A stretch of 64,000 bases of DNA from the sequence record NC_052652.1; one strand, written 5' to 3'. Source of the DNA: Escherichia phage vB_EcoM_PHB05. Below the pieces are notes generated by a model that saw only the letters and a list, made by a program, of their open reading frames with translations, was not told the DNA's origin and ran no database searches. How positions within the stretch are numbered: the first letter of the stretch is position 1; each line of letters begins with the position of its first letter. This document shows, in pieces, positions 1-42,308 of this stretch. The position numbers were made by a program, and so were the translations under genes.

Positions 1-71
1 AGCCTACTTTCTTAAAAGCGCAATAAATTAGAATTATCTTGATTTTTAGGACGTTTTATAGTATAGAAAAT

Positions 72-280
72 ATGCAAATGATAATCATTATCAACTATCT
101 TCCACGGGTGGCACTATTTCACGCAGGATCATTTCATTTGGCAAGGTGTATATAGATGTTTAGAAATGCCAAGCCATTGATTTACTTAGAATTTATCTTT
201 TTTGTTGTGAGTAATGCCTTTCTTGCTCAGAAAATAATCAAAAGTCTTATAAGTCATTGAATGATAATGCAAATGATAAT
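72..280. repeat. 14-bp direct repeat ATGCAAATGATAAT (72-85 and 267-280) in 5' noncoding region
   Basis: Exact 14-mer seen twice about 195 bp apart in ORF-free region. Confidence 0.5.
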
Positions 281-406
281 AATTCTCATTGATATTTGAG
301 GGGGACGGTCAGCAGAAATCGGGGGGCGCTGAAAATCGCGTTAAGCACCTCTCGCAAGCGAGCAGTATTTTGCGGCAAGTTATTGATATTATTGACTTTA
401 CGCTTA

Positions 407-520
407 TGAAAAGGGGGTGTGTCGAAATAAATAGGGTATACCGGAAAATTTTTGTGGCATAGATATTTATTTGTCTATATTATGTACAAAGGGGTGTGTT
501 AAAAATATTAGGTATATATA
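407..520. repeat. Two copies of about 33-bp motif AAAGGGGTGTGT-N-AAATA-N-TAGGTATA (about 408-443 and 487-520)
   Basis: Near-identical G-rich/AT motif repeated about 80 bp apart upstream of first CDS; possible regulatory or protein-binding sites. Confidence 0.45.
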
Positions 521-696
521 GAATAATTGATAGGGAAATCCTATACTAAATCCTTCATTATTGCAGCGGGTGAAAGACAGAATCGAAGATGCAAATAATG
601 CTTGCATTGGATAGAAATGTCTGTATAGTGGTTTGCATACCGCGCACGACGCGTTTCCATTTTCAATAAAATGTTAGCATTATGGGGAGGTAGAAA

Positions 697-1158
697 ATGA
701 GACAACTATTTATACTGGAAGCATATGTGCAATGTGTTGCAGATTATGTCAAAGAACACTCAAGTTTGTTAGATGTAACCTGTGCAGTGCAAAATGATGT
801 AGGTATTGTCTGTGTGCGACATATCTTATCTGAAACTCGTTATGAAGTATTTCGTGCCAAGTTGTTTGGATGTGATCAAGTGCATGTAAACTTCTTGGAT
901 TCCAATTTTCGTTATGCTTTAGAAAATATTGATGATTATCTTCCTTGCTCTCCGACCGGATATGTGATGATGGCAGCAAATGAAGTAACACCAAGCAACA
1001 ATGAGCGGGAAACTTTGTTACGGAAGAAAATACGCCAACTGCAAGTGTTGAATGAAATGAAAGAAGAGATTGAAAAAGAACTGAAAGAAGATTTTGGTAC
1101 GCTTCCAAAAGACGCTTTGAAATGGTATGATGAACTAGGAGAGGAAAGTTATGAATAA
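697..1158 (+). CDS. hypothetical protein (paralog of 6911-7162 product)
   Basis: 153-aa ORF; N-terminal 80 aa share conserved blocks with the 6911 ORF (AYV..V..H.SLL.V, HxLS.T.Y.VF, NF....LEN). Confidence 0.55.
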   Translation: MRQLFILEAYVQCVADYVKEHSSLLDVTCAVQNDVGIVCVRHILSETRYEVFRAKLFGCDQVHVNFLDSNFRYALENIDDYLPCSPTGYVMMAANEVTPSNNERETLLRKKIRQLQVLNEMKEEIEKELKEDFGTLPKDALKWYDELGEESYE

Positions 1159-1327
1159 AGAAACTACTGTGTACTTAGTAACAAAGAATACCCCAGGCTG
1201 GAGCCAATGCAGCACTGTTCCTTACAAGATCTGTGCAACATTAGAACTAGCACAACGTGCAGAAGCAGAAGTGAATGCCATGCAATACAGCTATGGTGAG
1301 ATCATTCCTTTTACTCTTGAACAATAA
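1151..1327 (+). CDS. small hypothetical protein (58 aa)
   Basis: ATG 1151 preceded by GGAGAGGAAAG RBS-like run; overlaps stop of upstream gene. Confidence 0.3.
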   Translation: MNKETTVYLVTKNTPGWSQCSTVPYKICATLELAQRAEAEVNAMQYSYGEIIPFTLEQ

Positions 1328-1338
1328 GGATTTGTGTA

Positions 1339-1791
1339 ATGTTTGAAATTGGTAAAGTGTATCGTTTTAAGAACGCATCTTATATCCGCAAGTTTGCTAA
1401 TGTGTCTGAGTGCAATAGCAAGATTGCTTCTTTCTTAGGTGATTCCTATTTTCGTGTATTAGATGTGGATGACTGGTATGGTGTCACTGCTTTGCAATCC
1501 TTAGCAGGAGAACAAGAAATTATCGCTCAAAATGAAGGAGACTTTCTTCAGTGTTACACGTTGCTTGCAAAAAGTGAGTTTGAATACTTTGTAGAAGTAT
1601 TAGAAGAAGCACCAAAAAGTAAACACGAAGAGAAATACTTGCTTGTAGTGGACGGAGTTCCGATCATGGAAACCATCTCCCGTGAGGAAGTTGAAAAAGA
1701 GGCGAAACGTTACAAGCTGGATCGTACACAGAGTGTAGTTGAAATCTATTCTCTTGTTGGTGTTGCAGATATTAGTGTGAACATCGTATAA
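1339..1791 (+). CDS. hypothetical protein
   Basis: 150-aa ORF in tandem + strand early block; no recognisable motif. Confidence 0.55.
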   Translation: MFEIGKVYRFKNASYIRKFANVSECNSKIASFLGDSYFRVLDVDDWYGVTALQSLAGEQEIIAQNEGDFLQCYTLLAKSEFEYFVEVLEEAPKSKHEEKYLLVVDGVPIMETISREEVEKEAKRYKLDRTQSVVEIYSLVGVADISVNIV

Positions 1792-1794
1792 TAT

Positions 1795-2007
1795 ATGTGT
1801 AATGACAGATACATTCTTCGTGTATCTGATAAGTCTCCAATGTTTGACTGGCGGGGTTGGTGGCTACTAGCTCCGATGCAAGGTCTGACAGACGTGGAAA
1901 AGGAGGCTTATGTGTATACAAAAGAAGAGATAGAAGATAGCCTTTATTTGACAGATAGTATTAAGAATGGTATCTTTGAGTGTAAATTGAAAGGAGAGGA
2001 AGAATGA
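1795..2007 (+). CDS. hypothetical protein
   Basis: 70-aa ORF tightly packed after previous gene. Confidence 0.4.
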   Translation: MCNDRYILRVSDKSPMFDWRGWWLLAPMQGLTDVEKEAYVYTKEEIEDSLYLTDSIKNGIFECKLKGEEE

Positions 2008-2303
2008 CTGTTACAGAAAAACTGCGCTGTATTGCAAAGCAAAGTGGAGAAGGCTTGTGGTTTCCTATTGATGAAGTTATTCAGGACTGTTATGATCAGG
2101 CAAAAACTGGCAAATACTCCAAAGCATTTAAACCATCTGTTTTCGGTTTGGATGACTACCCGACAAATGAACAAGCAAAGAAACGCCAAGTTGATTTGAT
2201 TGATCTTGCTATGGAAGCACTACGAGAACGTGGACTTAGTAAGGTGTATGCTTTAAACACCAAAGAGGGTTTTGTAGATTCAGTGATCGTAGACTGGCAT
2301 TAA
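2004..2303 (+). CDS. hypothetical protein
   Basis: 99-aa ORF, 4-nt overlap with upstream gene. Confidence 0.5.
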   Translation: MTVTEKLRCIAKQSGEGLWFPIDEVIQDCYDQAKTGKYSKAFKPSVFGLDDYPTNEQAKKRQVDLIDLAMEALRERGLSKVYALNTKEGFVDSVIVDWH

Positions 2304-2312
2304 GGAGAAGCC

Positions 2313-2681
2313 ATGCAAGAGAATAATAAAGTGTGTAACATGAAAAGCAGCCCCTATTTGCTACAATTTTATGAGTGGTGGTTGGAACAAGAAGATACAA
2401 ACTTTAGCAAAAAGCATTATGGTCTTTGCACGTGTCTTGTAGACTTCTTATACAACATTGCTTGGATAAAAGATGTTGAGAATGTAGCAAACCTTCAAGC
2501 CTCTGTACGAGAGGAAATGAAGGAACAGTTTAAGAAAGCAGGTTTGAACCATTTACATCCATTTAATACAGATTTCTCACATTACTTTACAGAAACAGAG
2601 TTAGGCATTGCACACCTTAACAAAGAACGTGTACAATGGGTGATTGATCGTATTCGTGATATGGAGAAATACAATGGTTAA
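2313..2681 (+). CDS. hypothetical protein (paralog of 3305-3889 product)
   Basis: Shares LLQFY..W, HPFN, HLN.(E/K)R(V/I).WV..R blocks with the 3305 ORF. Confidence 0.55.
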   Translation: MQENNKVCNMKSSPYLLQFYEWWLEQEDTNFSKKHYGLCTCLVDFLYNIAWIKDVENVANLQASVREEMKEQFKKAGLNHLHPFNTDFSHYFTETELGIAHLNKERVQWVIDRIRDMEKYNG

Positions 2682-2892
2682 GTTTAAAACTTTCTGTGCA
2701 ATCTCTGTTTGTCTTATTCTTGCATACGTGTTATTCTCTGGTATCATTCGTTTAGGTGATCATATGGCAAGAGAAGCTCGTGAAAGTGAAGCTAAAAAAG
2801 AACAGTGTATTGTGTTCAAGCATCAAAGAGATGCTGAAAAGTTTCTCGCACTTGATTGCAATCGTTATGTATCTTATCAAATGTATGAGTAA
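2674..2892 (+). CDS. small membrane protein
   Basis: Start refined to ATG 2674 (MVKFKTF...); hydrophobic helix FCAISVCLILAYVLFSGII. Confidence 0.45.
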   Translation: MVKFKTFCAISVCLILAYVLFSGIIRLGDHMAREARESEAKKEQCIVFKHQRDAEKFLALDCNRYVSYQMYE

Positions 2893-2901
2893 GGAGGATT
2901 T

Positions 2902-3126
2902 ATGGTAAAACGTCTGGAATGGGATGCGTGTACTGCTCACGCTTGTCACTGTGATATTGTGGAAGATCCTAATGGAGAAATGGTGTATTATGAAGATTAC
3001 GAAGCATTGCACAATGCTGTGATTGCTTTACTGGATGATATTAGCTCACGCTACCCAGGACAACAATTCACGTGTCCACATATTCAACTGTTAGCCAAAC
3101 TTACGGAGTATCCAAGTGTTCCATAA
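2902..3126 (+). CDS. hypothetical protein
   Basis: 74-aa ORF, RBS-like AAGGAGGA upstream. Confidence 0.45.
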   Translation: MVKRLEWDACTAHACHCDIVEDPNGEMVYYEDYEALHNAVIALLDDISSRYPGQQFTCPHIQLLAKLTEYPSVP

Positions 3127-3127
3127 T

Positions 3128-3295
3128 ATGGGTGTCCCTGAACAACTGCTCTTTATTGTAGGACTAGTAGGCTTATTGGCGGCTGGAGCTAAAGCCGCTT
3201 CTCACACACGTCACATAATGTTAAGATTTCTATTCCTGCTCCCTTCTATCCTCGTACTACTAGTCATACTGATCGATAACATTTTTCACAATTAA
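3128..3295 (+). CDS. small two-helix membrane peptide (55 aa)
   Basis: ATG 3128 overlapping upstream stop; translation is strongly hydrophobic (LLFIVGLVGLLAAGA ... FLFLLPSILVLLVILI); below the ORF-track cutoff. Confidence 0.3.
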   Translation: MGVPEQLLFIVGLVGLLAAGAKAASHTRHIMLRFLFLLPSILVLLVILIDNIFHN

Positions 3296-3304
3296 GGAGA
3301 GGTT

Positions 3305-3889
3305 ATGAGTAAAATTATACCAAGCAGTTATGAATTATTGCAGTTTTATGTATATTATATAGACTGGGTTACTAGATCGAATGTTAAAGACAATGCGATG
3401 TTTAGTAAAAACATTTGTTTAACAGAAAGTATCTTCCGTTACTGGCACACAGGTAGAAAGTGTACACACAGTGAAGCTATGCGCATTGTAGGTGAATACC
3501 TGGAGCAATTGCAAAAAGCAGAACTTCCTGTCCTTCACCCATTCAATGAATCTAAAGAAGAATTAGAACAAGAGTGTAAGGAAGGTAAGTGCCATTTGAA
3601 TGAAAAACGTATTGAATGGGTAAGGCAACGTTTAGCCGATGCAGGAAAGCCTCCTAGTAACTCTGACTATACGTGGTACGATGTAGAGGGTTTAGTTCAG
3701 GGTTTTGAGGCTTGTGCTATAGATAATACCAATTTTGCCAAAGTTTTATGCGAGGTTTATGATCTGGCAGATAAAATCCGAAATCAAGGATGGAAACAAG
3801 AGCATAAAGAATCATATGAACGTCTTGACAAGATTTTCAAACAGATCTATTCTAACCACAAAGAGATGTTCCAAATGGAGGATGTGTAA
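3305..3889 (+). CDS. hypothetical protein (paralog of 2313-2681 product)
   Basis: 194-aa ORF with AAGGAGAGG RBS; shared blocks with the 2313 ORF. Confidence 0.55.
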   Translation: MSKIIPSSYELLQFYVYYIDWVTRSNVKDNAMFSKNICLTESIFRYWHTGRKCTHSEAMRIVGEYLEQLQKAELPVLHPFNESKEELEQECKEGKCHLNEKRIEWVRQRLADAGKPPSNSDYTWYDVEGLVQGFEACAIDNTNFAKVLCEVYDLADKIRNQGWKQEHKESYERLDKIFKQIYSNHKEMFQMEDV

Positions 3890-4575
3890 TGAAAGAGATT
3901 ATGTTTGAAGGTCATCGTTACGAAGTTCCAGACAATGCAAATTTTATGGCTCGTGATATCACTGGAGATGTGTTCTGGTTTGAAGATGAACCTGTATTTT
4001 CTTCGAACAAACACTGGTTTTCACAACAATCTTCTTCGGAAAATATGACTTTTGGCTACGTAGAACCTAAAGTCCGTTGCAGAGCAGCTTCTTCTTTGGT
4101 AAAAATTGCGCAGGATGATCAAGAAAATACTCCAGATGTTGTTAGTGCACTACTGAAGTACATTGCAGAACTTGAAAATAAAATTAAAGAAGCAGAAACT
4201 AAGGTGAAAGCACGATCAGCAATCATTGAATCTATGTCTGAACGTATTTTAGAATTAGAAGATTTGTGTGGAGAGGCTTATCAAGTGGTTGGTGCACTGG
4301 CTTGTGAAGCAGAAATGTTTGAAACTTCAGAACAAGTTTCACATATGTTAGATAATTTGAGTGAATGTAAAATGATTCATGATGATGTATTGCCATTTTG
4401 TTGCAATGTTAACAAAACAGAGCAAACAGAAGATTCAGAAACAGTTTATGTTCCGCTAATGTGTGTTCCAGATCATCTAAAAGGTGTATTCTCTTGTAAA
4501 TGGTCACTGTTGAGCGTTAATAATTGTGGTGAAAACTATTCTGCTAACATTGAATTGCTAAAACACGTTAAATAA
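3889..4575 (+). CDS. hypothetical protein
   Basis: 228-aa ORF; ATGA start/stop overlap with upstream gene. Confidence 0.55.
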   Translation: MKEIMFEGHRYEVPDNANFMARDITGDVFWFEDEPVFSSNKHWFSQQSSSENMTFGYVEPKVRCRAASSLVKIAQDDQENTPDVVSALLKYIAELENKIKEAETKVKARSAIIESMSERILELEDLCGEAYQVVGALACEAEMFETSEQVSHMLDNLSECKMIHDDVLPFCCNVNKTEQTEDSETVYVPLMCVPDHLKGVFSCKWSLLSVNNCGENYSANIELLKHVK

Positions 4576-4585
4576 GGAGAGTGAT

Positions 4586-4990
4586 ATGTGGTCTGTTAAA
4601 ATCAAATATAATGCGCAGTATTATGGTGGAAAACCTTACGAAGTTGTTATTTGTGATTGTATCTCTAAAGAAGTTGCACAGCTTTGTGGCGCTGGTGTTA
4701 GTGAAGCTATGAACAAAATGCATAACTCCACTGTGCGTTTCCTGGGTCGGGATATTCCAGAAGATGTAAATGACTATGATTACGAAGTTATTTACAATGA
4801 AGGTAAGAAGCTCTCTATTGAAGATGCACTTAAAGCACTACCTGCTATCTGCAATCCGACACCAGAAGCAGTTAAAGAGATTTTACCAGAATCCAACCCC
4901 GATGAATATGCCTCTATGGTTGCTTCAGATATGTGGAATCTCTGTCGAGAAACTATGATTAAAAATCTTGTGGAAATGGCACATGAGTAA
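4586..4990 (+). CDS. hypothetical protein
   Basis: 134-aa ORF with AAGGAGAG RBS. Confidence 0.5.
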   Translation: MWSVKIKYNAQYYGGKPYEVVICDCISKEVAQLCGAGVSEAMNKMHNSTVRFLGRDIPEDVNDYDYEVIYNEGKKLSIEDALKALPAICNPTPEAVKEILPESNPDEYASMVASDMWNLCRETMIKNLVEMAHE

Positions 4991-5201
4991 AACGCACTTT
5001 ATACATCCGTTTGATCCAAAGAACAAGGCGGTTATACACCGCCGTTGGACTGAAACGCGCATTACAAAATGTCCTGTGCCAGCAGCACAGGAATATAACA
5101 AAACATATAAAGCAGAATTTGTGGAGTACACCTTTGTGAATAACAAAGGGAAGGAGGTTTATGTTCCAGAATACTGCCTTTGGATAAAATGGGAGGAATA
5201 A
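4968..5201 (+). CDS. hypothetical protein
   Basis: 77-aa ORF overlapping end of upstream gene. Confidence 0.4.
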   Translation: MWKWHMSKTHFIHPFDPKNKAVIHRRWTETRITKCPVPAAQEYNKTYKAEFVEYTFVNNKGKEVYVPEYCLWIKWEE

Positions 5202-5368
5202 TGCAAACATTTTTTATCGACAAATTCAACAAAAATATGAACACGTGGATGGCAACATTCACTATGCAATTTGCGTCATTTAAAGAGGCTCAAGAATGGT
5301 GCGATCAGCACAAGGATTTTGATTTTTACTATCAAATTAATACAAATCTTTCTCCAGAGGATAAATAA
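5180..5368 (+). CDS. hypothetical protein
   Basis: 62-aa ORF. Confidence 0.35.
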   Translation: MDKMGGIMQTFFIDKFNKNMNTWMATFTMQFASFKEAQEWCDQHKDFDFYYQINTNLSPEDK

Positions 5369-5369
5369 T

Positions 5370-5720
5370 ATGTTGGCTGATATTGAAATCCTTATGTACC
5401 GACAAGGTATGATCAAAATGTGGCTGGATTCTTTTAGCAACATATACTGCACAGTGCGATCAGCAGAGGAGCGTAAAACGCTTATTTTATCTGCTATTGT
5501 TGATAAACAACGTTTCTTCAAAGAAGTTTTGCAAACAGGCTTCTCCGATGCAGGAGTAGAGATTGCAACTCTTAGTCTTGGGGTGCTGTCTTACTTGGAG
5601 TCCGTTGTTTTATATGTCTTCTCTTTAGAAGAAGACTTGCAATTGGAAGCATTAAAACTTATTCTAGATGCTGCAATTGACATAGAACAAAATCGAATTG
5701 ATTCTTTTGAAGAAAAATAA
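5370..5720 (+). CDS. hypothetical protein
   Basis: Start refined to internal ATG 5370 (MLADIEIL...) immediately after upstream stop. Confidence 0.4.
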   Translation: MLADIEILMYRQGMIKMWLDSFSNIYCTVRSAEERKTLILSAIVDKQRFFKEVLQTGFSDAGVEIATLSLGVLSYLESVVLYVFSLEEDLQLEALKLILDAAIDIEQNRIDSFEEK

Positions 5721-5730
5721 GGAGAAAACT

Positions 5731-6189
5731 ATGCAAGAGGTTAAACATTATCCACATGGTCGTAGTTTTGTAGCTGTATGGCATGTTCCTGCTCGTAATG
5801 AACTGTTTTGCGCATCTTTTCATTATAAAGATGGACAATATTTCACCTATGACGAGACGATGGATGACTTTATCCCAGAATGCGATCATGGTTATACACC
5901 AATGTTCTTTAAACGTATGAAAGCTCGTTTCTTCGTTACAGATGTTGATGGTGAACCTACTTGGCACATCGAAGAAGATTGGCAAGATTCTGTGGATATT
6001 AAAGAAGCCCCAGAATGGGCTACACTACTGGTACACGTCAAAACCCCTACCCTTGACGTTATGGCGTGGGTTAATCATGATGATACCCATTTCCAATACA
6101 TAAACAGTAGCACAGAGATTTCTGGTGAGATTATTGGTCGTTGGAAGCCTACGAATCAGGTTGCTATTGTCGGGTATAAGACGGTATAA
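5731..6189 (+). CDS. hypothetical protein
   Basis: Start refined to ATG 5731 with AAGGAGAAAA RBS. Confidence 0.5.
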   Translation: MQEVKHYPHGRSFVAVWHVPARNELFCASFHYKDGQYFTYDETMDDFIPECDHGYTPMFFKRMKARFFVTDVDGEPTWHIEEDWQDSVDIKEAPEWATLLVHVKTPTLDVMAWVNHDDTHFQYINSSTEISGEIIGRWKPTNQVAIVGYKTV

Positions 6190-6190
6190 T

Positions 6191-6385
6191 ATGAAAAATA
6201 GCGTAGACTGGGATGATTTATCCGATTTTGAAAAATGGTTCTTAGGTAGTGGTTGTTATGCAGACGGGGATCTCGAAAGAGATCCTTCTGGAAACTACAC
6301 TATGCCATTAACCCAAGGTTTTTATGAGTGCTGGTGCGCAGCACAAAACAACGTACTGAATAAGGAGACAACACAATGCAATTAA
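6191..6385 (+). CDS. hypothetical protein
   Basis: Start refined to ATG 6191 (MKNSVDWDD...). Confidence 0.4.
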   Translation: MKNSVDWDDLSDFEKWFLGSGCYADGDLERDPSGNYTMPLTQGFYECWCAAQNNVLNKETTQCN

Positions 6386-6615
6386 ACATCGGACAACCAA
6401 TTTTTGATGCAGATACTGGTCAATATGCAGTGATTGTTGCTCGTATGAGTGGGGATGATTTTATTGTTTCAGAACTACTCGGATCAGATCCGCAACTGCG
6501 CGTAGTTTGTGACCTATATCTTCGAGACGAAAGTGATCGCATTGCACTGAAAGAAGATGGTATGCTCTACTACACCTGGACTAGAGATCCTGGGGTAACG
6601 GAGGTAGAGGTATAA
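6376..6615 (+). CDS. hypothetical protein
   Basis: 79-aa ORF with AAGGAGA RBS. Confidence 0.45.
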   Translation: MQLNIGQPIFDADTGQYAVIVARMSGDDFIVSELLGSDPQLRVVCDLYLRDESDRIALKEDGMLYYTWTRDPGVTEVEV

Positions 6616-6914
6616 TGGTAAGGAATAGGGGCTTACATAAAAGAAGACATCTCACTTACTGGCATCGTAAAGTACATGAACCTGTATCAAAGAAAGAATG
6701 GCAATACCTGCCTTATGGAAAGGAGCGAAGAAAGTATTTGTTAGCTCATTTAAGGGTACATGGTTCGCTTCCTGTTAACAGTAAGTGGCAATTGCAAACA
6801 GCTTATGACGAGGATATGAAATATCTGTTAAAGAGGGGCATTATTTGCCTTGTTAAGATAGGACGATGGAAATCTCGTCAATCTTATATCGTACTTAAAC
6901 AGGAGAAACCATGA
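6615..6914 (+). CDS. hypothetical protein
   Basis: 99-aa basic ORF; start/stop overlap with upstream gene. Confidence 0.45.
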   Translation: MVRNRGLHKRRHLTYWHRKVHEPVSKKEWQYLPYGKERRKYLLAHLRVHGSLPVNSKWQLQTAYDEDMKYLLKRGIICLVKIGRWKSRQSYIVLKQEKP

Positions 6915-7162
6915 ATATCAAAGATGTTGTCGCATACGTGGAAGATGAAGTTAAAAACCATACAAGTTTACTGAAAGTAATGGTTGTGGTTAAAAATGGT
7001 ATTGGACAAGTAAACGTACAACATGTCTTATCTGACACTGTATACAATGTGTTTGAATGTAAAGAAACACCTCATGGAGTACGTGTGGTTTATATTGATA
7101 ACAATTTCAAAGAATGTGTGAGACATACCTTAGAAAATGAACTAAGGATCACAATCCTATGA
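6911..7162 (+). CDS. hypothetical protein (paralog of 697-1158 product)
   Basis: 83-aa ORF similar to N-terminal region of the 697 ORF. Confidence 0.5.
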   Translation: MNIKDVVAYVEDEVKNHTSLLKVMVVVKNGIGQVNVQHVLSDTVYNVFECKETPHGVRVVYIDNNFKECVRHTLENELRITIL

Positions 7163-7332
7163 GTTATTATGTTGTACCTTATGCCAATAAGTGGAGAGTA
7201 AGAGAAACTTGTTTTCTATTCTCCTGGTGGGCTACATTCGGAGATGGTTGTGGAAATGATACAGGAAAGCCTGTAGAGTATGACACGAAAGAAGAATGTG
7301 AACAGTGGATAAAATTAACACAAAGATGTTGA
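7159..7332 (+). CDS. small Cys-rich hypothetical protein (57 aa)
   Basis: ATGA overlap with upstream stop; below ORF-track cutoff. Confidence 0.3.
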   Translation: MSYYVVPYANKWRVRETCFLFSWWATFGDGCGNDTGKPVEYDTKEECEQWIKLTQRC

Positions 7333-7385
7333 CACGATCTTAACTTCTTGTTAGTATCAATGTGTACTAACGATAAGGAGGGTTC

Positions 7386-7610
7386 ATGAAGTCTGTAAAC
7401 AAGTTGCAACAATTTTTGTTATCAACAGCAATCTTTTTGCTTTTGTTAATTGGTATTCTGTATGGTGCAGCTAACTTATACAAGCTACACAAAAATGTAG
7501 AACATAACACAGAGAAGTGCACTATTCTAAAACAAAATAAACAAGCAGAAGATTTCTTAAAGAATAAATGTTACAACTACATTGATTATGAGGAGACAAA
7601 CAATGATTAA
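7386..7610 (+). CDS. small membrane protein
   Basis: AAGGAGG RBS; hydrophobic helix LLSTAIFLLLLIGILYGAANL. Confidence 0.45.
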   Translation: MKSVNKLQQFLLSTAIFLLLLIGILYGAANLYKLHKNVEHNTEKCTILKQNKQAEDFLKNKCYNYIDYEETNND

Positions 7611-7845
7611 AGAATTAGGCATGCGAGTATACAGTGAGTGGACTCCAAGCAATGGCCCAGGAATTGTTGCAGCTAAGTGTATCAATGGTCGTATTGAGTA
7701 CCTGGAAGGTTATGAAGATAATGAAGAGTTAGTAGATTATGCTAAATCTTTTATTGAAGATGATACAGACTTTATTGTATTATATGATACAGGAGAGTTA
7801 GAGTATGGATATGATGGAGATGGGGATATCTTTGAACTTCAATAA
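7603..7845 (+). CDS. hypothetical acidic protein
   Basis: Start refined to ATG 7603. Confidence 0.4.
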   Translation: MIKELGMRVYSEWTPSNGPGIVAAKCINGRIEYLEGYEDNEELVDYAKSFIEDDTDFIVLYDTGELEYGYDGDGDIFELQ

Positions 7846-8052
7846 GAGTAGTAAGTAAGATATAAAGAGTATATAGTTAGTTATAGAGTTAGTAACATTA
7901 CATATACTCTTTCCATGTGTAACATGGAATATTCTCTACCTCGCTATCGCTCGGTATATAAGATTAGGGTAGCATGTTTTTTACGAAAAGTAAAACTGTT
8001 TGTACCGATTGATAGCAGGTTTTTAATAGATTTTATCTATGAGGAGTAGAAA

Positions 8053-8271
8053 GTGTACAAATTATATAAAGCAAAAGATAAGTTTACGGGTAATACATCT
8101 GGTTTCTATGTAACACCTCGTGGTGTTGCTGTGTTCGATTGGATCTCTGGTACTCCAGATCGTGAAATAATCTCTCTTGTAAAACTGTCAGAACAAGATT
8201 ATACTTACGGTGACATTACAACGTTCTATTCTCGTGCAGAAAATCCAAAACTAATTGCGGAGTGGGAATAA
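8053..8271 (+). CDS. hypothetical protein
   Basis: 72-aa ORF, GTG start with GAGGAG RBS. Confidence 0.4.
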   Translation: MYKLYKAKDKFTGNTSGFYVTPRGVAVFDWISGTPDREIISLVKLSEQDYTYGDITTFYSRAENPKLIAEWE

Positions 8272-8534
8272 TGGTTACACGATATGGCTTAGAGGTGTAC
8301 AGCCAAGGTGCTGCTGGTCAATGTGATATTGTACCAGATCCAGAAGGGGATTATGTTCTTCTTGCTAATTACAATAAGCTAGAAGAAAGACTTCTGGCTG
8401 TGTATGCTAAAGAGAACAAAACAATCTGCCCTTATTGCAGTGGAATGGGTTGGGTGGTTGCAGATGTTGGACAAATGTACGAATGTGTGCCTTGTAAAAC
8501 CACAGGATTTATTGAAAAGGATACTGACAAATGA
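8271..8534 (+). CDS. hypothetical protein (CxxC...CxxC)
   Basis: Start refined to ATG 8271; CPYC...CVPC pattern suggests zinc ribbon. Confidence 0.4.
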   Translation: MVTRYGLEVYSQGAAGQCDIVPDPEGDYVLLANYNKLEERLLAVYAKENKTICPYCSGMGWVVADVGQMYECVPCKTTGFIEKDTDK

Positions 8535-8779
8535 CTGTAGCAGATAAAATGAGAGAACTGGCAGAAAACGCAGAACTTAACAAAGCAAAGGATAGTCTAC
8601 AAAATATCTACTCGTATATTGAGAGAGCAGCTAAAGATGGAGACAGAGAAGTTGCTATCTACACGCTTTATCCAACTTTTGTAAAAGTTAACTTGGATGC
8701 TGAAGGTTTTTCAACTTTTATTGATACAGAAACATCTCATTACGACGAAAACTTTACTCGAATAGTTATTCGATGGTAA
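8531..8779 (+). CDS. hypothetical protein
   Basis: 82-aa ORF overlapping upstream stop. Confidence 0.45.
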   Translation: MTVADKMRELAENAELNKAKDSLQNIYSYIERAAKDGDREVAIYTLYPTFVKVNLDAEGFSTFIDTETSHYDENFTRIVIRW

Positions 8780-19490: not shown

Positions 19491-20153
19491 TTATTTAATA
19501 TTCAATTTTGCACAAAGACGTTGTACCGCTTTGGCATCGAACAAACTCCCACGAATAGTTCTCTTTCCTGATTCATTCAGATGCTTTGCAATCGTCATAT
19601 ATGGCGTTTTACAAGCTCTGTATGCAACTAAAGAATCTTTTAAAGAAAGTGCAAACTCTTTTGAGCGTTTTGCTTCTTCCGTTTTCGTATAATCTGTTCT
19701 TTTGTATTTAGGGTTTGCTGCACCAAGAAGCGTTCCCTTCGCTTTTGCTACCTTAAGGCTCTTCTTAACACGATCAGATATTGCACGAGCCTCTTCTTCT
19801 GCCAGAACTGCTAAAATATTTATTATCATATTTTCAGCGGAGGGCATAGTTGCTATCCGTACATTAATCATCTCTAACAAGGTTGCAACAGAAGCTGTGT
19901 TACGTCCAAGACGGTCAACCTTAGCAACAACAAGTGTAGCACCTGTTTCTTTGCAAAGATTAACAGCTTTTACAAGCTCTCTACGTTGCTTCCAATCGCC
20001 TTTACCAGAATAAAACTCTGCAAAGCTACCTACAATAGTATAATTTTCTTGTGAATCCAGGAAGCGTTGGATATCTGCTTCCTGTGATTCTATACCATAC
20101 TGGTTGCCTTGTTGTTTCTTCTTAGAAAGTCGATGATACAGTACAAACTTCAT
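19491..20153 (-). CDS. serine recombinase (resolvase/invertase family)
   Basis: N-terminal YHRLSKKKQQ...ESQ...IQ and VAKVDRLGRNTASVATLL match resolvase catalytic domain blocks; C-terminal HTH-like region. Confidence 0.75.
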   Translation of the reverse strand: MKFVLYHRLSKKKQQGNQYGIESQEADIQRFLDSQENYTIVGSFAEFYSGKGDWKQRRELVKAVNLCKETGATLVVAKVDRLGRNTASVATLLEMINVRIATMPSAENMIINILAVLAEEEARAISDRVKKSLKVAKAKGTLLGAANPKYKRTDYTKTEEAKRSKEFALSLKDSLVAYRACKTPYMTIAKHLNESGKRTIRGSLFDAKAVQRLCAKLNIK

Positions 20154-20665: not shown

Positions 20666-21167
20666 AATAGAAAGGTTGAGTTAAACCCAGCCTGTTTTTT
20701 GGGTCGTAGACGTACCAAGCATATGCTGTCTTATCAGTACCACCTGCAACAAAAGATGGTCGTTCAGAAAGAACAATCAAATTTGTTGGTGGATTCTGTT
20801 TATGGAATTCCCTTCGTTTAATAGACTCTAGGAACCCAAGACGCAACAAGTATATGCAAACGTCTGCTTCTTTTAAGCTCTTTTGCAAGAACTCAAGTGC
20901 AAGTCTGAATGGTGGATTTGTGATTATAATATCCGGCTTAGTATGCCATTCGTGGTTAAAATAATCCTTCCCTTCTTCTAACTCACAATATTCTGATCCT
21001 TCTGGAAAATGTTGATAAATTGCAGCAGCAGCGCCTTTACACGGTTCTGCAAAAATAAAACCTTCTTCTTTAAGGTTATTAAAATCTATTACACTAAATA
21101 ATGCATTTATACATTTTTGTGGAGTAGGATAGTAATCAGTTGGTGGACGATCATACTTATTTGCCAC
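20658..21167 (-). CDS. small DNA N6-adenine methyltransferase (phage Dam-like)
   Basis: IITNPPF motif IV of amino-methyltransferases; size about 170 aa typical of phage Dam family. Confidence 0.6.
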   Translation of the reverse strand: MANKYDRPPTDYYPTPQKCINALFSVIDFNNLKEEGFIFAEPCKGAAAAIYQHFPEGSEYCELEEGKDYFNHEWHTKPDIIITNPPFRLALEFLQKSLKEADVCIYLLRLGFLESIKRREFHKQNPPTNLIVLSERPSFVAGGTDKTAYAWYVYDPKNRLGLTQPFYFV

Positions 21168-21585
21168 TACTTAAAATCTCCTCTTTTGTGATTTCAGGGT
21201 TTTCTTCAAAAACCATAATATCTCTTAAGAACGTTAATTCTTCCATAGATACTGGTATTGTATCTTCTTCTGTTTTTCGTTTACATAAATCGTCAAGAAA
21301 GTTTTTAACGCTTTCTGACACATCGTAAAATTTCAACAATTGATAATCACAGGAGGAGATCCTATCTAGTTCTAACATTCTTTCTAAGATATTTTCTGTG
21401 TTGCCGTACAACACACGAACCTCTCCGAAAGGGTTGACTAAATATTGTGAATTTCTGAACCATCCCTTTTTAGATACAGTGTAACGCTGTTCTGCTAAAC
21501 TTTCAATAAAATTTTTAGCCCTTTTACAGTTTTGTTCTAAAGAGTAGTAGGCTTTTTCTACAAAGATTACAGGTACTGGTAACAT
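21157..21585 (-). CDS. hypothetical protein
   Basis: 142-aa ORF. Confidence 0.5.
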   Translation of the reverse strand: MLPVPVIFVEKAYYSLEQNCKRAKNFIESLAEQRYTVSKKGWFRNSQYLVNPFGEVRVLYGNTENILERMLELDRISSCDYQLLKFYDVSESVKNFLDDLCKRKTEEDTIPVSMEELTFLRDIMVFEENPEITKEEILSSGK

Positions 21586-21625
21586 ATCTCCTCCTAATAA
21601 CCCCCGTGAGGGGGTTTATGTTAGA

Positions 21626-22279
21626 TTAATTATCAGAGGACACTTTATCAAGTTTTTCAGAGACTGTCAATACTTTTTCTTGTGATTCTTTCATTTCTGC
21701 TAAAATACTTTCAGCTTCATCACTATCAGGATCACCAGTCAACAGCATACTAATTAGTTGCTCCTTGCTGAAGTTCAGAATATCTTCCGCTGTTAGCTCC
21801 AGTTGTTCTTCGATCTCTTCAACAAAAGTTTCACCGCCTGAAAAAGCATCTCGTAGTTTTGCAACTTCCATCGCTTCTTCTGGGGTTGCCCCAGCGTCTA
21901 AAGCTGCTAAAGCAAAATCTGCCCCACTACCAACAGCATAGTAATCTTCAGTTAAAGGGTATGCTCGCGTTGGATTATTACCCTCGTGCATATAAATTTT
22001 ACCGTCTGGGTGAACAACCAATGCCACAAACTCTTCATCTTCTTTATCAGGATCTGACTGGATCACCAAACCTGGGATTGTCTCTTGTGCTGCCTGGCAC
22101 TGTAAGTTTTGTTCGAACCAAGAAAAGAAAGTCAGGATAGAAGACAGACGTCCTGCACCACCAACAAGGTAATCCCCAATTTTACGCACTTTCTTGAAAT
22201 TTAAAGTGTCTACTCGATTACCTACTGTTACTTTACCGTCAGATAGAATTTTGTTATGTGTTGCAATAATTGTTGTCAT
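21626..22279 (-). CDS. HslV-like Ntn-hydrolase peptidase
   Basis: N-terminal M-TTIIAT (Thr right after Met) and blocks GDGKVTVGN...KKVRKI, GGAGRLSSILTFF, YAVGSGADFALAA parallel E. coli HslV. Confidence 0.65.
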   Translation of the reverse strand: MTTIIATHNKILSDGKVTVGNRVDTLNFKKVRKIGDYLVGGAGRLSSILTFFSWFEQNLQCQAAQETIPGLVIQSDPDKEDEEFVALVVHPDGKIYMHEGNNPTRAYPLTEDYYAVGSGADFALAALDAGATPEEAMEVAKLRDAFSGGETFVEEIEEQLELTAEDILNFSKEQLISMLLTGDPDSDEAESILAEMKESQEKVLTVSEKLDKVSSDN

Positions 22280-22770
22280 TGTACTTCCTCCTGTAGTGTT
22301 TTAAGGACTGCTTTACCACCGCTTACATACTTACGTAGGTAATCAATAGCTCTTAGTGTTTCTTTATCCACAAGAATTTTATTAGTTCTTGTTAGTGGAT
22401 GATTTAGTAAATCACTGCAATTTCTTACTAACATAGACTTCTTGTGAAAGATACTGCTAAGAAAAAGAAGTTTAGAATCTTCTTCATCAATCAGGAGTAA
22501 TTCTGAATTAGATCCAGCTACATTTATTATACACTCAAACAAGCCTTCTTGACTATCAGATAATTCCTGGTAATATTTAGTTAGCCAATCCTCTCCTTTT
22601 AACCAACTAAAAAACATCTGAACTTTTTGCAAAGTTGTCATGTTCTCTAAACGAAGAGATATTTCTTTTTCAATCTTGTCAATATAAATCTGTCTAAACT
22701 CATTCGGCTTAACTAAGCCAGCTTGATAGCATTCATCAATACCATTGCGATCAATCTCAATTAGCGTCAT
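22276..22770 (-). CDS. hypothetical protein
   Basis: 164-aa ORF. Confidence 0.5.
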   Translation of the reverse strand: MTLIEIDRNGIDECYQAGLVKPNEFRQIYIDKIEKEISLRLENMTTLQKVQMFFSWLKGEDWLTKYYQELSDSQEGLFECIINVAGSNSELLLIDEEDSKLLFLSSIFHKKSMLVRNCSDLLNHPLTRTNKILVDKETLRAIDYLRKYVSGGKAVLKTLQEEVQ

Positions 22771-23574: not shown

Positions 23575-23596
23575 AAAAGGGGCTTTCGCCCCTTTG
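23575..23596 (-). terminator. rho-independent terminator (GGGGCTTTCGCCCC family)
   Basis: AAAAGGGGCTTTCGCCCCTTT hairpin with T-run downstream of endolysin gene on - strand. Confidence 0.6.
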
Positions 23597-24258: not shown

Positions 24259-24525
24259 TTACTCCGCAATCTGAGCCATGAATTCACGTAGTTCAGAAAA
24301 ACCTCCTACGTGGGTTAGATGTTCACCATCTTCCACAAAAATTTGAGGAAAGGTACGTGGCAGAACACCTGTTTTCTCTAAAACCAGATTCTGAATCTGA
24401 TCTAAAGAATAGTCTTCATCTAAGGTAAGATATTTAAAATCCTGTTCACGCTGTTCCAGTAGAATCTTAGCGTTAGTGCAGAAAGGACAATTTGGTTTAC
24501 CGTAGATAATAAAATTCATTTTCAC
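24259..24525 (-). CDS. glutaredoxin (NrdH/Grx-like)
   Basis: CPFC active site near N-terminus, about 88 aa. Confidence 0.8.
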   Translation of the reverse strand: MKMNFIIYGKPNCPFCTNAKILLEQREQDFKYLTLDEDYSLDQIQNLVLEKTGVLPRTFPQIFVEDGEHLTHVGGFSELREFMAQIAE

Positions 24526-25352
24526 TCCTTGTTTAAAAGTATAGTTAAAGTTCTTACAATACCGCTATCAACACTTCGCGGAGTTAAAGTAGGATCTGTT
24601 TTTAAATAAGATGTTGCTGGTCTGACTGCTTTAGAATTATAGGTTGAAGCAGATACAGGATTAACTGTAACAGATAAATCTATAACAAGAAATATCTTAC
24701 GTGCAAAATCATACCAAGAAATATAATCTGCACCTGCATAGTGTACAATTTTACTATTTACACCATCTTTTACAAGTTTAAAAATTGTTTCTGCAAGATC
24801 AGGTGCATAAGTAGGACATGATAAATGATCACATACTACATTAAATTCTTTTTGACCACCGTTGTAGCGTTCCAACATAGTTTTCAAAAAGTTATGTCCA
24901 AATTCACTATAAACAGAAGCTGTTCTGATAATAAGTGCTGTAGGACAAACTGCTTGTACTAAAGTTTCACCTAATTGTTTACTGTAACCGTAGGTGTTCA
25001 AGGGGTTTGTTTTACTATCTTCTGTGCCAGCAACATTCCCATCAAAAACATAGTCTGTTGAAATATGTACAAACTGTATCAGTAAATCATTACATGCTTT
25101 GGCAATGTTTGTTGCACCGTATGCATTAACATTTATACAAGTGTTAACATCTTCTTCAGCTTTATCTACTGCCGTGTAAGCTGCACAATTCACAACAACA
25201 TCAGGCACGTGCTGTACAAGACTATTCATAACATCTTTAAAGTTGGTAATGTCTATATCACTTGCTTCAATCAAAATAACATCTTCGGGCGCAACTTTTG
25301 CCAAAGACTGTCCTAATTGACCTTTTGAACCAAAGATTAAAAATTTTGTCAA
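24522..25352 (-). CDS. rmlD: dTDP-4-dehydrorhamnose reductase
   Basis: N-terminal Rossmann FGSKGQLG, STDYVFDG, YGYSK catalytic motif; last gene of rml block. Confidence 0.8.
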   Translation of the reverse strand: MTKFLIFGSKGQLGQSLAKVAPEDVILIEASDIDITNFKDVMNSLVQHVPDVVVNCAAYTAVDKAEEDVNTCINVNAYGATNIAKACNDLLIQFVHISTDYVFDGNVAGTEDSKTNPLNTYGYSKQLGETLVQAVCPTALIIRTASVYSEFGHNFLKTMLERYNGGQKEFNVVCDHLSCPTYAPDLAETIFKLVKDGVNSKIVHYAGADYISWYDFARKIFLVIDLSVTVNPVSASTYNSKAVRPATSYLKTDPTLTPRSVDSGIVRTLTILLNKE

Positions 25353-40994: not shown

Positions 40995-41192
40995 TGTTTC
41001 TCCTTATTTAAAATATTGTTCTAACAAAACACTAATGCGAACTACCGATTCGCCCATATACGCCCCAGCACAGAGGAAAACAACAAATCTACAAAAATTG
41101 CAGTACCATTTGTTCACTGGAAACGAGGCTAACATTATAATTGCAATAGCAATTAACATCATAAGAAATGTTACTAATACCATATTTACCTC

Positions 41193-42308
41193 TTACTCTG
41201 CTGGTTCCCAAGTACCTGGAATCATCTTACGTACACGTACACCTGTTGGTTTAGTAGGTATTCCACCATCGGAAAACTCTTCATACTCAATCTCAACAAA
41301 TTTACCAATTAACATTTCGGCATTTTCTGCTTTACGATAGTTAATGGTTTCATCTGAATCCTTACGCATCAGGAATTCGACTACTTTACCATTTTCCATC
41401 TCGCCTGTCAATACCCCGTCACCATTTTTATCACGTTTTGCACTTACCACCTTAACTTCAAGCGTCTGCCGTGGTTTACGTTTAATAACATCATAAGAAC
41501 GTTTATCAAACTCGTAAACACCTTGTGCATTACGATAAACAACACCTTCAGCTTTCTCACGCAGAGCTTTTGCATAGAACGCATCAAACTGCTCTTGGTT
41601 TTCAATGTACTCTGTATGCACTACACAAATAAGTTCATCTAAACCTTTATCTTCAACAACTTCTTTTAGAGCAGCCAAAACTTCAACCCTCTTCTCAAAT
41701 GGTACAGATGGTACAGGAACATCATATACATAGTATTTAAGAAGCGGAGTGTTAGCATTATGCTTTTTCCACGCACTATTAATTTGTTGAAGGCTAAGGA
41801 CACCCAAACCAGCAAAAACTTCACCGTCAAGAGGATGACCAACTACTTCTTTAATGAAGGTTGGAATTTCTTTCCAGTGAGGTGGAAGTTTATATACTTC
41901 CCCAGCTTTAGATAAGCATTCACCTTGCATGTTAATCATTGAACGTAGACCATTCAATTTATACTGTGCATAACCTGGGAACAAAACACGATCAGCATAA
42001 TCTTTATAATCCTGACATTTCATGGGCGTGGAAGGAACATGGTTTTCAGCTTCCTCTTTTGTTTTATAGTACCCATTCTTAAGTTGTTTTGTCCATTTGG
42101 CAAGAGCTTCTATTTCAGCTTGTTCTTCTGCTGTTGTTTCATTTGAGCGACCAATATTTTTAGGTTCTGCCGTATAAGATTTGCTAGTAATCTTTCCACC
42201 TAATTGACCATGAGCAACAGTTACAACACTACCTTCGGTATAGACTGACCACTGTTTAATTTTACCTGTAGAAGTTTTACCATATAGTGTAGGATTAGTT
42301 TGTTTCAT
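41193..42308 (-). CDS. ATP-dependent DNA ligase
   Basis: Start refined to ATG 42308 (GGAGG RBS); motif I KLNGLR, EGVVYR, KxK blocks. Confidence 0.8.
   Translation of the reverse strand: MKQTNPTLYGKTSTGKIKQWSVYTEGSVVTVAHGQLGGKITSKSYTAEPKNIGRSNETTAEEQAEIEALAKWTKQLKNGYYKTKEEAENHVPSTPMKCQDYKDYADRVLFPGYAQYKLNGLRSMINMQGECLSKAGEVYKLPPHWKEIPTFIKEVVGHPLDGEVFAGLGVLSLQQINSAWKKHNANTPLLKYYVYDVPVPSVPFEKRVEVLAALKEVVEDKGLDELICVVHTEYIENQEQFDAFYAKALREKAEGVVYRNAQGVYEFDKRSYDVIKRKPRQTLEVKVVSAKRDKNGDGVLTGEMENGKVVEFLMRKDSDETINYRKAENAEMLIGKFVEIEYEEFSDGGIPTKPTGVRVRKMIPGTWEPAE

Follow-up and report, generated by a model that had tools for sequence, protein, structure and literature searches.

A proteasome-like peptidase of a phi92-like Escherichia phage: predicted loss of HslV helix H2, a conserved acidic loop and tail motif, and no identified unfoldase partner

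Introduction

The locus described here raises the question of what a phage may gain from a proteasome-like peptidase of its own when no gene for an unfoldase of the HslU type lies beside it, and whether such a peptidase is a genuine HslV that works with the HslU of the host or a different member of the proteasome superfamily. The question is not confined to one phage, as peptidases of the proteasome type that lack an unfoldase partner are common among large lytic phages: homologues of the protein studied here occur in 165 phage records (Escherichia, Klebsiella, Aeromonas, Vibrio and Shewanella phages), and a Ntn/proteasome-like fold is carried by 47 viral structure clusters, ranging from Caulobacter phages to jumbo phages. 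Phages of the phi92/Bas60 type are genetically tractable and therefore offer a convenient entry to the problem.

The DNA analysed, referred to below as the window, is a stretch of 64,000 nucleotides from a Justusliebigvirus, a genus of phi92/alia-like E. coli myoviruses within the Stephanstirmvirinae. More than 12 Justusliebigvirus genomes match the region at 99.0-99.3% identity. The whole window is colinear with the genome of Escherichia phage PaulScherrer (Bas60), from 95,282 to 150,000 and then from 1 to 8,718, and the two are 97-99% identical.

The proteasome/HslV-like assignment made by an initial annotation of this DNA is correct, and it was already known at the levels of annotation and family in GenBank, PHROGs and UniRef. 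Numerous GenBank and UniRef accessions hold the identical peptidase sequence (100%), which they name “peptidase HslV family” or “20S proteasome”, and gp058 of phi92 belongs to the same UniRef 90% cluster, with related records also carrying the labels “putative proteasome component”, “putative 20S proteasome” and “HslV family peptidase”. The occurrence of an HslV-like gene without HslU alongside was remarked upon earlier in a phage genome paper (PMC7823757), and literature searches returned no functional study of such phage peptidases. What the present analysis adds to annotation is the non-orthology to HslV, the placement in a clade that appears to lack helix H2 and with it part of the HslU docking pocket, the description of a conserved acidic loop and tail motif, and a search for partners in which no dedicated one was identified.

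The gene and its surroundings

The open reading frame of 217 codons beginning M-TTIIAT is present exactly where the initial annotation had placed it, on the minus strand, a detail that had not been given (Table 1). Its translation (217 aa followed by a stop codon) starts with MTTIIATHNKILSDGKVTVGNRVDTLNFKKVRKIGDYLVGGAGRLSS, and the HslV-like blocks that had been picked out are all found, GN.V...KKVRKI at residues 20-34, GGAG at residues 40-43 and GSG at residues 117-119. The gene is preceded by a strong ribosome-binding site and belongs to a block of minus-strand genes concerned with nucleotide metabolism and DNA modification. The open reading frame that follows it (phrog_15078) is conserved among close relatives only.

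Table 1. Features of the peptidase locus, with positions counted along the window
Feature	Position	Strand	Basis or remark
Peptidase CDS (217-aa proteasome/HslV-like Ntn peptidase)	21626..22279	minus	ORF list and sequence; stop codon 21626-21628
Shine-Dalgarno AGGAGG	22287..22292	minus	7 nt 5' of the peptidase ATG; read from the sequence
Start/stop overlap ATGA	22276-22279	minus	peptidase ATG shares letters with the stop codon TGA of the preceding 164-aa ORF
Thr2 codon, predicted N-terminal nucleophile after removal of the initiator Met	22274..22276	minus	conservation in relatives
Catalytic core, residues 1-155	21815..22279	minus	alignments, AlphaFold2 model, Foldseek
Acidic Pro/Gly-containing loop, residues 66-84	22028..22084	minus	AlphaFold2 secondary structure; predicted to replace HslV helix H2
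C-terminal extension, residues 156-217	21629..21814	minus	no counterpart in HslV or in ~145-aa relatives
Conserved tail motif, residues 162-180	21740..21796	minus	conservation among tailed relatives
Upstream 164-aa ORF, phrog_14834	22276..22770	minus	stop codon overlaps peptidase start; context only
PhoH-like P-loop ATPase, 250 aa	22807..23559	minus	Pfam PhoH E 1.4e-35; two genes upstream of the peptidase
Downstream 142-aa ORF, phrog_15078, unknown function	21157..21585	minus	context only
GC-rich stem-loop ACCCCC-UCAC-GGGGGU	21598..21617	minus	within the 40-nt spacer that follows the peptidase stop codon

Family membership and fold

The window peptidase is a member of the proteasome-beta/HslV superfamily of Ntn-hydrolases. 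It matched families of the proteasome/HslV type, namely phrog_1040 (“peptidase HslV family” in PHROGs, E 1.5e-62) and the Pfam Proteasome family PF00227, where the score of 24.4 bits (E 2.6e-5) exceeded the gathering score of 22.4 by a narrow margin that is backed by the phrog_1040 result. When the protein was compared with PDB sequences by phmmer, the HslV proteins of T. maritima, E. coli and other organisms came first (E 2.4e-7 to 1e-4), followed by 20S beta5 subunits.

The AlphaFold2 model, built from 23 homologues, has a mean pLDDT of 80.3, with most core blocks between 85 and 97. Foldseek matched it in the PDB to HslV, to archaeal and eukaryotic beta subunits and to the beta-proteobacterial proteasome homologue (BPH), all with probability 1.00, the best match being HslV 6kui (E 4.6e-10), with TM scores of 0.64-0.66 on the target. 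The model and these matches support the alpha-beta-beta-alpha sandwich of Ntn-hydrolases, and by sequence as by structure the closest proteins are HslV and 20S beta subunits rather than a non-protease Ntn family.

The family is large. An exhaustive profile search retrieved 7048 relatives at E<=1e-3, with 1482 of them at <=1e-10. Together with the phrog_1040 match and the 165 phage records, these numbers put the resemblance well outside coincidence.

Catalytic residues

The initial annotation had drawn attention to the threonine placed directly after the initiator methionine, as in HslV, and in proper alignments the Thr/Asp/Lys and Gly-Ser-Gly positions are indeed retained. Conservation was followed in an alignment of 226 family members, drawn from 82 hits of a word index and the top 150 of the 7048 profile-search relatives. 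The column of Thr2 contains threonine in 95% of the sequences, the remainder being mostly truncated N-termini, and 197 of the 225 relatives begin with MTT. Asp14 and Lys30 are each found in 96%, Gly40 in 85% (mostly Ala in the rest) and Gly43 in 98%, while the block Gly117-Ser118-Gly119 shows 100% Gly, 92% Ser plus 7% Thr, and 99% Gly, respectively. Towards the end of the core, Asp144 is kept in 95%, Ser or Thr at position 147 in 94% and Gly148 in 94%.

By alignment, these candidate active-site residues correspond to positions of HslV and proteasomes: T2 to T1, D14 to D17, K30 to K33, G40/G43 to G45-48/G47, G117-S118-G119 to S124/S129, and D144/S147/G148 to D166/S169/G170. The equivalence of D144/S147 with D166/S169 rests on the pattern of the alignment, and a search of the motif fragment against the PDB, intended to anchor it, gave no match. 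The HslV row of the alignment is what we take to be the sequence of E. coli HslV, which presumably reads D-I-C-I-Y-T-N where the window peptidase has its R-D-x-x-S-G-G block. The numbering of this row agrees with that of the HslV residues named in PMC6429459.

Exposure of Thr2 would require removal of Met1, which is to be expected from the specificity of methionine aminopeptidase, and the conservation of the catalytic positions suggests that the window peptidase is catalytically competent. Such an active site could nevertheless serve a different chemistry. In connectase, an intact proteasome-like active site reportedly acts as a ligase and not as a protease, so that fold and triad are compatible with a specific ligase. 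By this reasoning the phage protein might not be degradative at all: it could be a processing enzyme with a specific target, a ligase or transpeptidase like connectase, or an amidohydrolase whose substrate is a non-protein amide, with its tail and acidic loop (see below) providing the specificity; unprecedented quaternary structures and functions are in fact expected in the newer groups of proteasome homologues (Fuchs et al., PMC8665760). We regard such a role as unlikely. The window peptidase does not have the two-helix insertion that connectase carries between S3 and S4 and keeps helices H1, H3 and H4, its best matches are all self-compartmentalising proteases, and no candidate substrate gene is conserved near the peptidase gene across the loci compared. 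An active threonine peptidase, cleaving its substrates as proteasomes do, is the reading that we prefer.

Relationship to HslV and docking to HslU

The host, E. coli, encodes HslU, and the phage protein could in principle replace HslV, docking onto the host HslU and redirecting this unfoldase to substrates chosen by the phage. Two observations speak for this possibility: among families with solved structures HslV is the nearest, and the peptidase gene has no phage unfoldase linked to it. The term “HslV-like” used in the initial annotation holds, however, for the fold and the catalytic site only, and fails for orthology. Both curated HslV equivalog models of NCBI were missed by more than 100 bits (NF003964, 34.5 vs 137; TIGR03692, 32.2 vs 157.75), and the window peptidase is not an orthologue of HslV. 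With the profile of its own family, scores reach 36-49 bits for solved HslV sequences and about 25 bits for beta5, as against 82-110 bits for many proteins of 137-160 aa that align from residue 1.

The second line of evidence concerns helix H2. The AlphaFold2 model contains one long helix at residues 45-67, followed by helices at 120-128 and 133-143, with none between 68 and 119. Residues 68-84, where HslV carries H2, are modelled as coil containing two prolines and one glycine, with moderate confidence for this H2-replacing loop (pLDDT 73-85). Helix H2 is thus predicted to be absent, an acidic, Pro/Gly-containing coil taking its place. An apparent deletion of ~18 residues relative to HslV in the H2 region turned out to be an alignment artefact; the segment from H1 to the following strand falls short of its E. 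coli HslV counterpart by just 4 residues, and for this reason the case for a missing H2 is built on the predicted coil and on the Pro/Gly content.

In HslV, the pocket that receives the C-terminal tail of HslU is formed by F54 and F57 of H1, A79 and K80 of H2, and Q114 (PMC6429459). F57 aligns with the invariant F52 of the window peptidase and F54 with L49, meaning that the hydrophobic residues contributed by H1 are partly kept, which favours docking. If H2 is missing, however, A79 and K80 go with it and part of the docking pocket would be missing too. Given an incomplete pocket and the failure of the HslV orthologue models, canonical docking to host HslU appears unlikely, though HslU might still bind through a non-canonical surface. 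The idea of an HslV replacement is further weakened by the existence of ~140-aa forms of the same family in very diverse phages and in metagenomes, and by the lack of AAA+ co-occurrence reported for the PPH and RPC groups (PMC8665760), and we accord it a low probability. The preferred reading is still that of a peptidase acting without a dedicated unfoldase, and its nearest counterparts are to be sought among proteasome homologues described as H2-less.

Comparison with known systems

Fuchs, Alva and Lupas defined 22 new proteasome homologues in 2021, and among those described, H2 is missing only in PPH/RPC and in connectase, no co-occurring AAA+ partner having been found for the PPH/RPC groups (PMC8665760). 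The reference sequences of the two groups are WP_042125023.1 for PPH and WP_140207863 for RPC. Judged by the published descriptions, the window peptidase seems to fit the compact H2-less phage clade of PPH/RPC type. Like PPH, it comes from a tailed phage of Proteobacteria, begins directly with Met-Thr without any propeptide, keeps the equivalents of Thr1, Asp17, Lys33 and Gly47, and has no linked AAA+ partner; in its AlphaFold2 model H2 is missing and H1, H3 and H4 are kept, as in PPH. It differs from PPH in size, since PPH proteins have ~140 residues and the window peptidase has 217, made up of a core of ~155 aa and a 62-aa tail with a conserved motif. Its loop at the H2 position is also longer and more acidic (19 aa with a net charge of -6; the compact clade has medians of 12 aa and -2).

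The arrangement of a PPH-like, H2-less core followed by a C-terminal extension is shared with RPC, whose extension is of unknown fold. RPC proteins have, however, been reported from proteobacterial genomes only (79 sequences) and are more divergent than PPH, whereas the clade of the window peptidase is carried by phages and has tails of variable kind, the whole proteins measuring 173-379 aa.

The similarities with HslV/ClpQ of E. coli, H. influenzae and T. maritima (1e94, 1g3i, 1m4y) comprise the Ntn fold, the Met-Thr-Thr start, the D17/K33/G-S-G equivalents and a similar core size, HslV being the best-scoring family with solved structures. In contrast to these proteins, the window peptidase appears to be devoid of the pocket residues of H2, has no linked hslU, carries a C-terminal tail and stays far below the orthologue cut-offs.

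BPH (5ovs/5ovt) offers a precedent of another kind, being a stand-alone enzyme with an acidic pore loop and without known unfoldase, and a structural match to the window peptidase with probability 1.00. It nonetheless keeps H1-H4 and forms a tetradecamer, and the family profile misses it at E 1e-3. Finally, Caulobacter phage CcrColossus (K4K619, 131 aa) and phage CcrBL9 (“Proteasome subunit beta”) encode proteins of the same fold, likewise in large lytic phages, with TM scores of 0.82-0.88 to the window peptidase when normalised to the targets; these proteins are, however, compact and tail-less, and only 25-28% identical to it.

Acidic loop and C-terminal tail

The loop predicted to replace H2, residues 66-84, reads ETIPGLVIQSDPDKEDEEF. 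Its length and charge are typical of the tail-bearing clade, where the median values are likewise 19 aa and -6 and where the loop is net negative in 99% of the members. The position is that of the “pore loop” site of Fuchs, Alva and Lupas (PMC8665760).

The C-terminal tail is acidic as well, with 17 D/E against 5 K/R over its 62 residues. Helices are predicted in it at residues 164-169, 172-181 and 188-212, with AlphaFold2 confidence dropping along the tail and low at the end. The best-conserved part is the motif at residues 162-180, LTAEDILNFSKEQLISMLL, an instance of the family pattern [ST]-x-[ED]-x(3-7)-[ST]-K-E-[EQ]-[LI]-[LIV], which is preceded by an acidic linker and after which the tails diverge. 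Of 225 relatives, 91 contain the motif, each of them tail-bearing, and E173 and L175 are conserved in at least 90% of alignment A1. Tailed relatives measure 173-379 aa in total, with tails of up to ~220 aa, and the nearest non-tailed relatives 137-160 aa.

Ten tails scanned with Pfam at E <= 1 yielded no significant domain. In many of the longer relatives the C-terminal end resembles a HeH/Rho_N-type module, for which one long relative gave a match to Rho_N below threshold (13.9 bits vs 24.9); the window peptidase has no HeH-like module. By analogy, and following a general comment of Fuchs et al. on the C-termini of proteasome homologues (PMC8665760), the tail is probably an interaction or regulatory module that projects outwards.

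Search for a partner

The absence of an HslU-like ATPase in the vicinity, pointed out in the initial annotation, was borne out, the sole nearby ATPase being the PhoH-like P-loop protein listed in Table 1. Neither HslU nor Clp proteins are found in the full annotation of the PaulScherrer genome. Synteny, annotation and the distribution of AAA proteins were all considered, and no dedicated partner of the window peptidase was identified by any of them, in agreement with Fuchs et al. (PMC8665760). PADLOC returned no defence-model matches for the peptidase or for its two small neighbours.

The PhoH-like ATPase was the candidate with the most regular association. In a synteny test of 36 loci, phoH lies 1.2-1.6 kb upstream of the peptidase gene in all those among L001-L023 that extend far enough, which are Stephanstirmvirinae-like loci together with L023 (47% identity), and also in the Vibrio phage locus L003 (38%). 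In L025 (36% identity) phoH is found downstream instead, in the order peptidase, 89-aa ORF, PhoH, among otherwise unrelated neighbours, which indicates that the adjacency survived a rearrangement. These data could be taken to mean that peptidase and PhoH-like ATPase form a new ATP-dependent degradation module, possibly with the 164-aa protein, whose reading frame overlaps the peptidase start, as an adaptor; were this true, an RNA-helicase-like ATPase would be linked to a proteasome-like chamber.

Such a module is nevertheless very unlikely. Nearly all cases of adjacency, including those of divergent relatives, come from one inherited block (RNR, glutaredoxin (Grx), lysozyme, PhoH, orfX, peptidase) and so are not independent. 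The 278-aa relative of Vibrio phage 1.121.O has no phoH within +-20 kb of its gene, none was found in flanks of up to 8 kb at the distant loci L026-L036 (where readable matches span <=160 residues), and the 164-aa protein gave no informative fold match. Moreover, PhoH proteins are SF1-like RNA helicases and not unfoldases (PMC7824862). On account of the single inherited block, of the loci without phoH and of the helicase-like nature of PhoH, the linkage is mostly attributed to phylogenetic inertia: one block, a single independent rearrangement in L025 and one tail-bearing relative without phoH do not suffice to make PhoH a partner. A narrower version, in which the tail-bearing subclade would be the proteolytic part of a module with the PhoH-like ATPase and the translationally coupled, all-alpha 164-aa protein, the tail motif [ST]-x-E...[ST]-K-E-E-L-L docking or activating in the manner of the HslU C-terminal peptide for HslV, is granted even less credence.

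Another candidate, bas60_0109, is labelled an FtsH-like protease; it is an AAA protein of 375 aa (PF00004, 38.9 bits) with a 42%-identical paralogue, both encoded outside the window. It occurs in 378 records, among them Enterococcus, Bacillus, Staphylococcus and Lactococcus phages, and was rejected as a specific partner because many of these phages of Firmicutes do not encode the peptidase, meaning that the two distributions do not track each other.

That the phage protein is a catalytically dead decoy or scaffold, poisoning host HslVU or some other host complex, is the least credible alternative, for although its strong acidity (41 D/E vs 18 K/R in the whole protein) recalls some phage inhibitor proteins and no partner was found, every catalytic position is strongly conserved down to ~30% identity, which would be unexpected for a decoy.

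Proposed mode of action

With these alternatives weighed, it appears rather probable that the window peptidase is an active Ntn-threonine peptidase of the H2-less phage clade, probably ring-forming, and operating without a dedicated unfoldase. In this scenario, the host methionine aminopeptidase would remove Met1 from the protein, which has no propeptide, exposing the threonine that would act both as nucleophile and as general base. Lys30 and Asp14 would complete the triad with this threonine, while the backbone at G40-G43, together with G117-S118-G119 and D144/S147, would shape the oxyanion hole and the active-site scaffold in the way that proteasomes do.

Following the pattern of its homologues, the peptidase would probably self-assemble into a ring-shaped homo-oligomer. 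Its substrates would presumably be peptides or unfolded proteins, cleaved independently of ATP and of any dedicated unfoldase, and the acidic loop and the tail may modulate access or recruit partners. That the enzyme processes phage or host proteins during infection, as the initial annotation had suggested, is speculative. The location of the gene in the nucleotide-metabolism and DNA-modification block suggests an intracellular role, and the enzyme would thus probably work within the infected cell and not as a part of the virion.

A minor feature of the locus is the stem-loop found just 3' of the peptidase gene (Table 1). Its centroid structure has an energy of -12.6 kcal/mol (z -1.6), no U-tract follows the stem, and the element is present in a single copy within the 64,000-nt window.

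Genes and stem-loops around the peptidase

The gene immediately upstream of the proteasome/HslV-like peptidase gene encodes a 164-aa protein whose motifs VKPNEF, VRxCSD and VDKETLRAIxYL are strongly conserved. Its AF2 model is all-alpha and confident (pLDDT 92.8), and structural and family comparison of the product returned no informative match. Two of the gene gaps carry stem-loops (see table), that on the minus strand after the peptidase gene having a folding energy of -12.6 kcal/mol (z -1.6). Both may act as processing or stability elements, or as weak terminators.

Coordinates of the features discussed
Feature	Position	Strand	Remarks
GC-rich stem-loop, no U-tract	window 21598-21617	(-)	short gap after peptidase gene
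164-aa ORF, phrog_14834	window 22276-22770	(-)	stop codon overlaps peptidase start as ATGA
GC-rich stem-loop, no U-tract	window 23576-23595		short gap between lysozyme and PhoH genes
tRNA cluster, 16 genes	window 51277-54158	(+)	
Peptidase / 89-aa ORF / PhoH, in that order	L025 7959-9614		IMGVR_UViG_3300030100_000755
AAA protein pair bas60_0109 / bas60_0075	L041 29408-30535 and 12912-13667	(+) and (-)	PaulScherrer, outside window

The adjacency of the peptidase gene to that of the PhoH-like ATPase is kept in an independent arrangement only in L025, the locus of a distant peptidase relative, where PhoH lies downstream of the peptidase gene and not upstream, and where the neighbours are a sigma-factor-like and a tail-fibre-like gene.

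C-termini of the longer peptidase relatives

The longer members of the peptidase family P0073-P0076, P0086, P0092, P0093, P0103 and P0121 are closed by a module of the form '...LGvxYxxxxSKxxLixxi...', which resembles an HeH/Rho_N motif; the Pfam match to Rho_N in this module is a single one and sub-threshold. A different, Cys-containing C-terminal domain, ending in W-[KR]-L, is found in P0061, P0069 and P0084.

Wider genomic context

The near-identical Justusliebigvirus PaulScherrer (Bas60) is colinear with the window, apart from a break at window 41020-41230 (PaulScherrer record positions 135,703-136,538). The window crosses the ends of the PaulScherrer record (~150,000 to 1) at ~54858-55283, and the source genome therefore has a different permutation. 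The tRNA cluster includes three tRNA-Met(CAT)-type genes, and the same region is annotated with 14 tRNA genes in PaulScherrer, versus 16 here.

This lytic myovirus encodes a site-specific recombinase of the resolvase type as well as a glutaredoxin, in a minus-strand block that takes in window 19491-20153 and 24259-25352 and continues to the rml genes. Judging by the annotation of PaulScherrer, that block also holds a full dTDP-rhamnose pathway (rmlABCD-like) together with sirtuin and NAD-salvage genes.

The PaulScherrer AAA proteins bas60_0109 and bas60_0075 are paralogues of ~375 aa each, 42% identical, with homologues widespread among Herelleviridae-type phages of Firmicutes. One of them is labelled 'FtsH-like protease', yet lacks a protease domain.

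Three GenBank records (MG065689, MG065656 and MG065650) are labelled 'Campylobacter phage' (A110a, C3 and B15). Their similarity to this region, or to the proteins it encodes, is about the same as that of the E. coli Justusliebigviruses and Phapecoctaviruses, and their host labels look doubtful.
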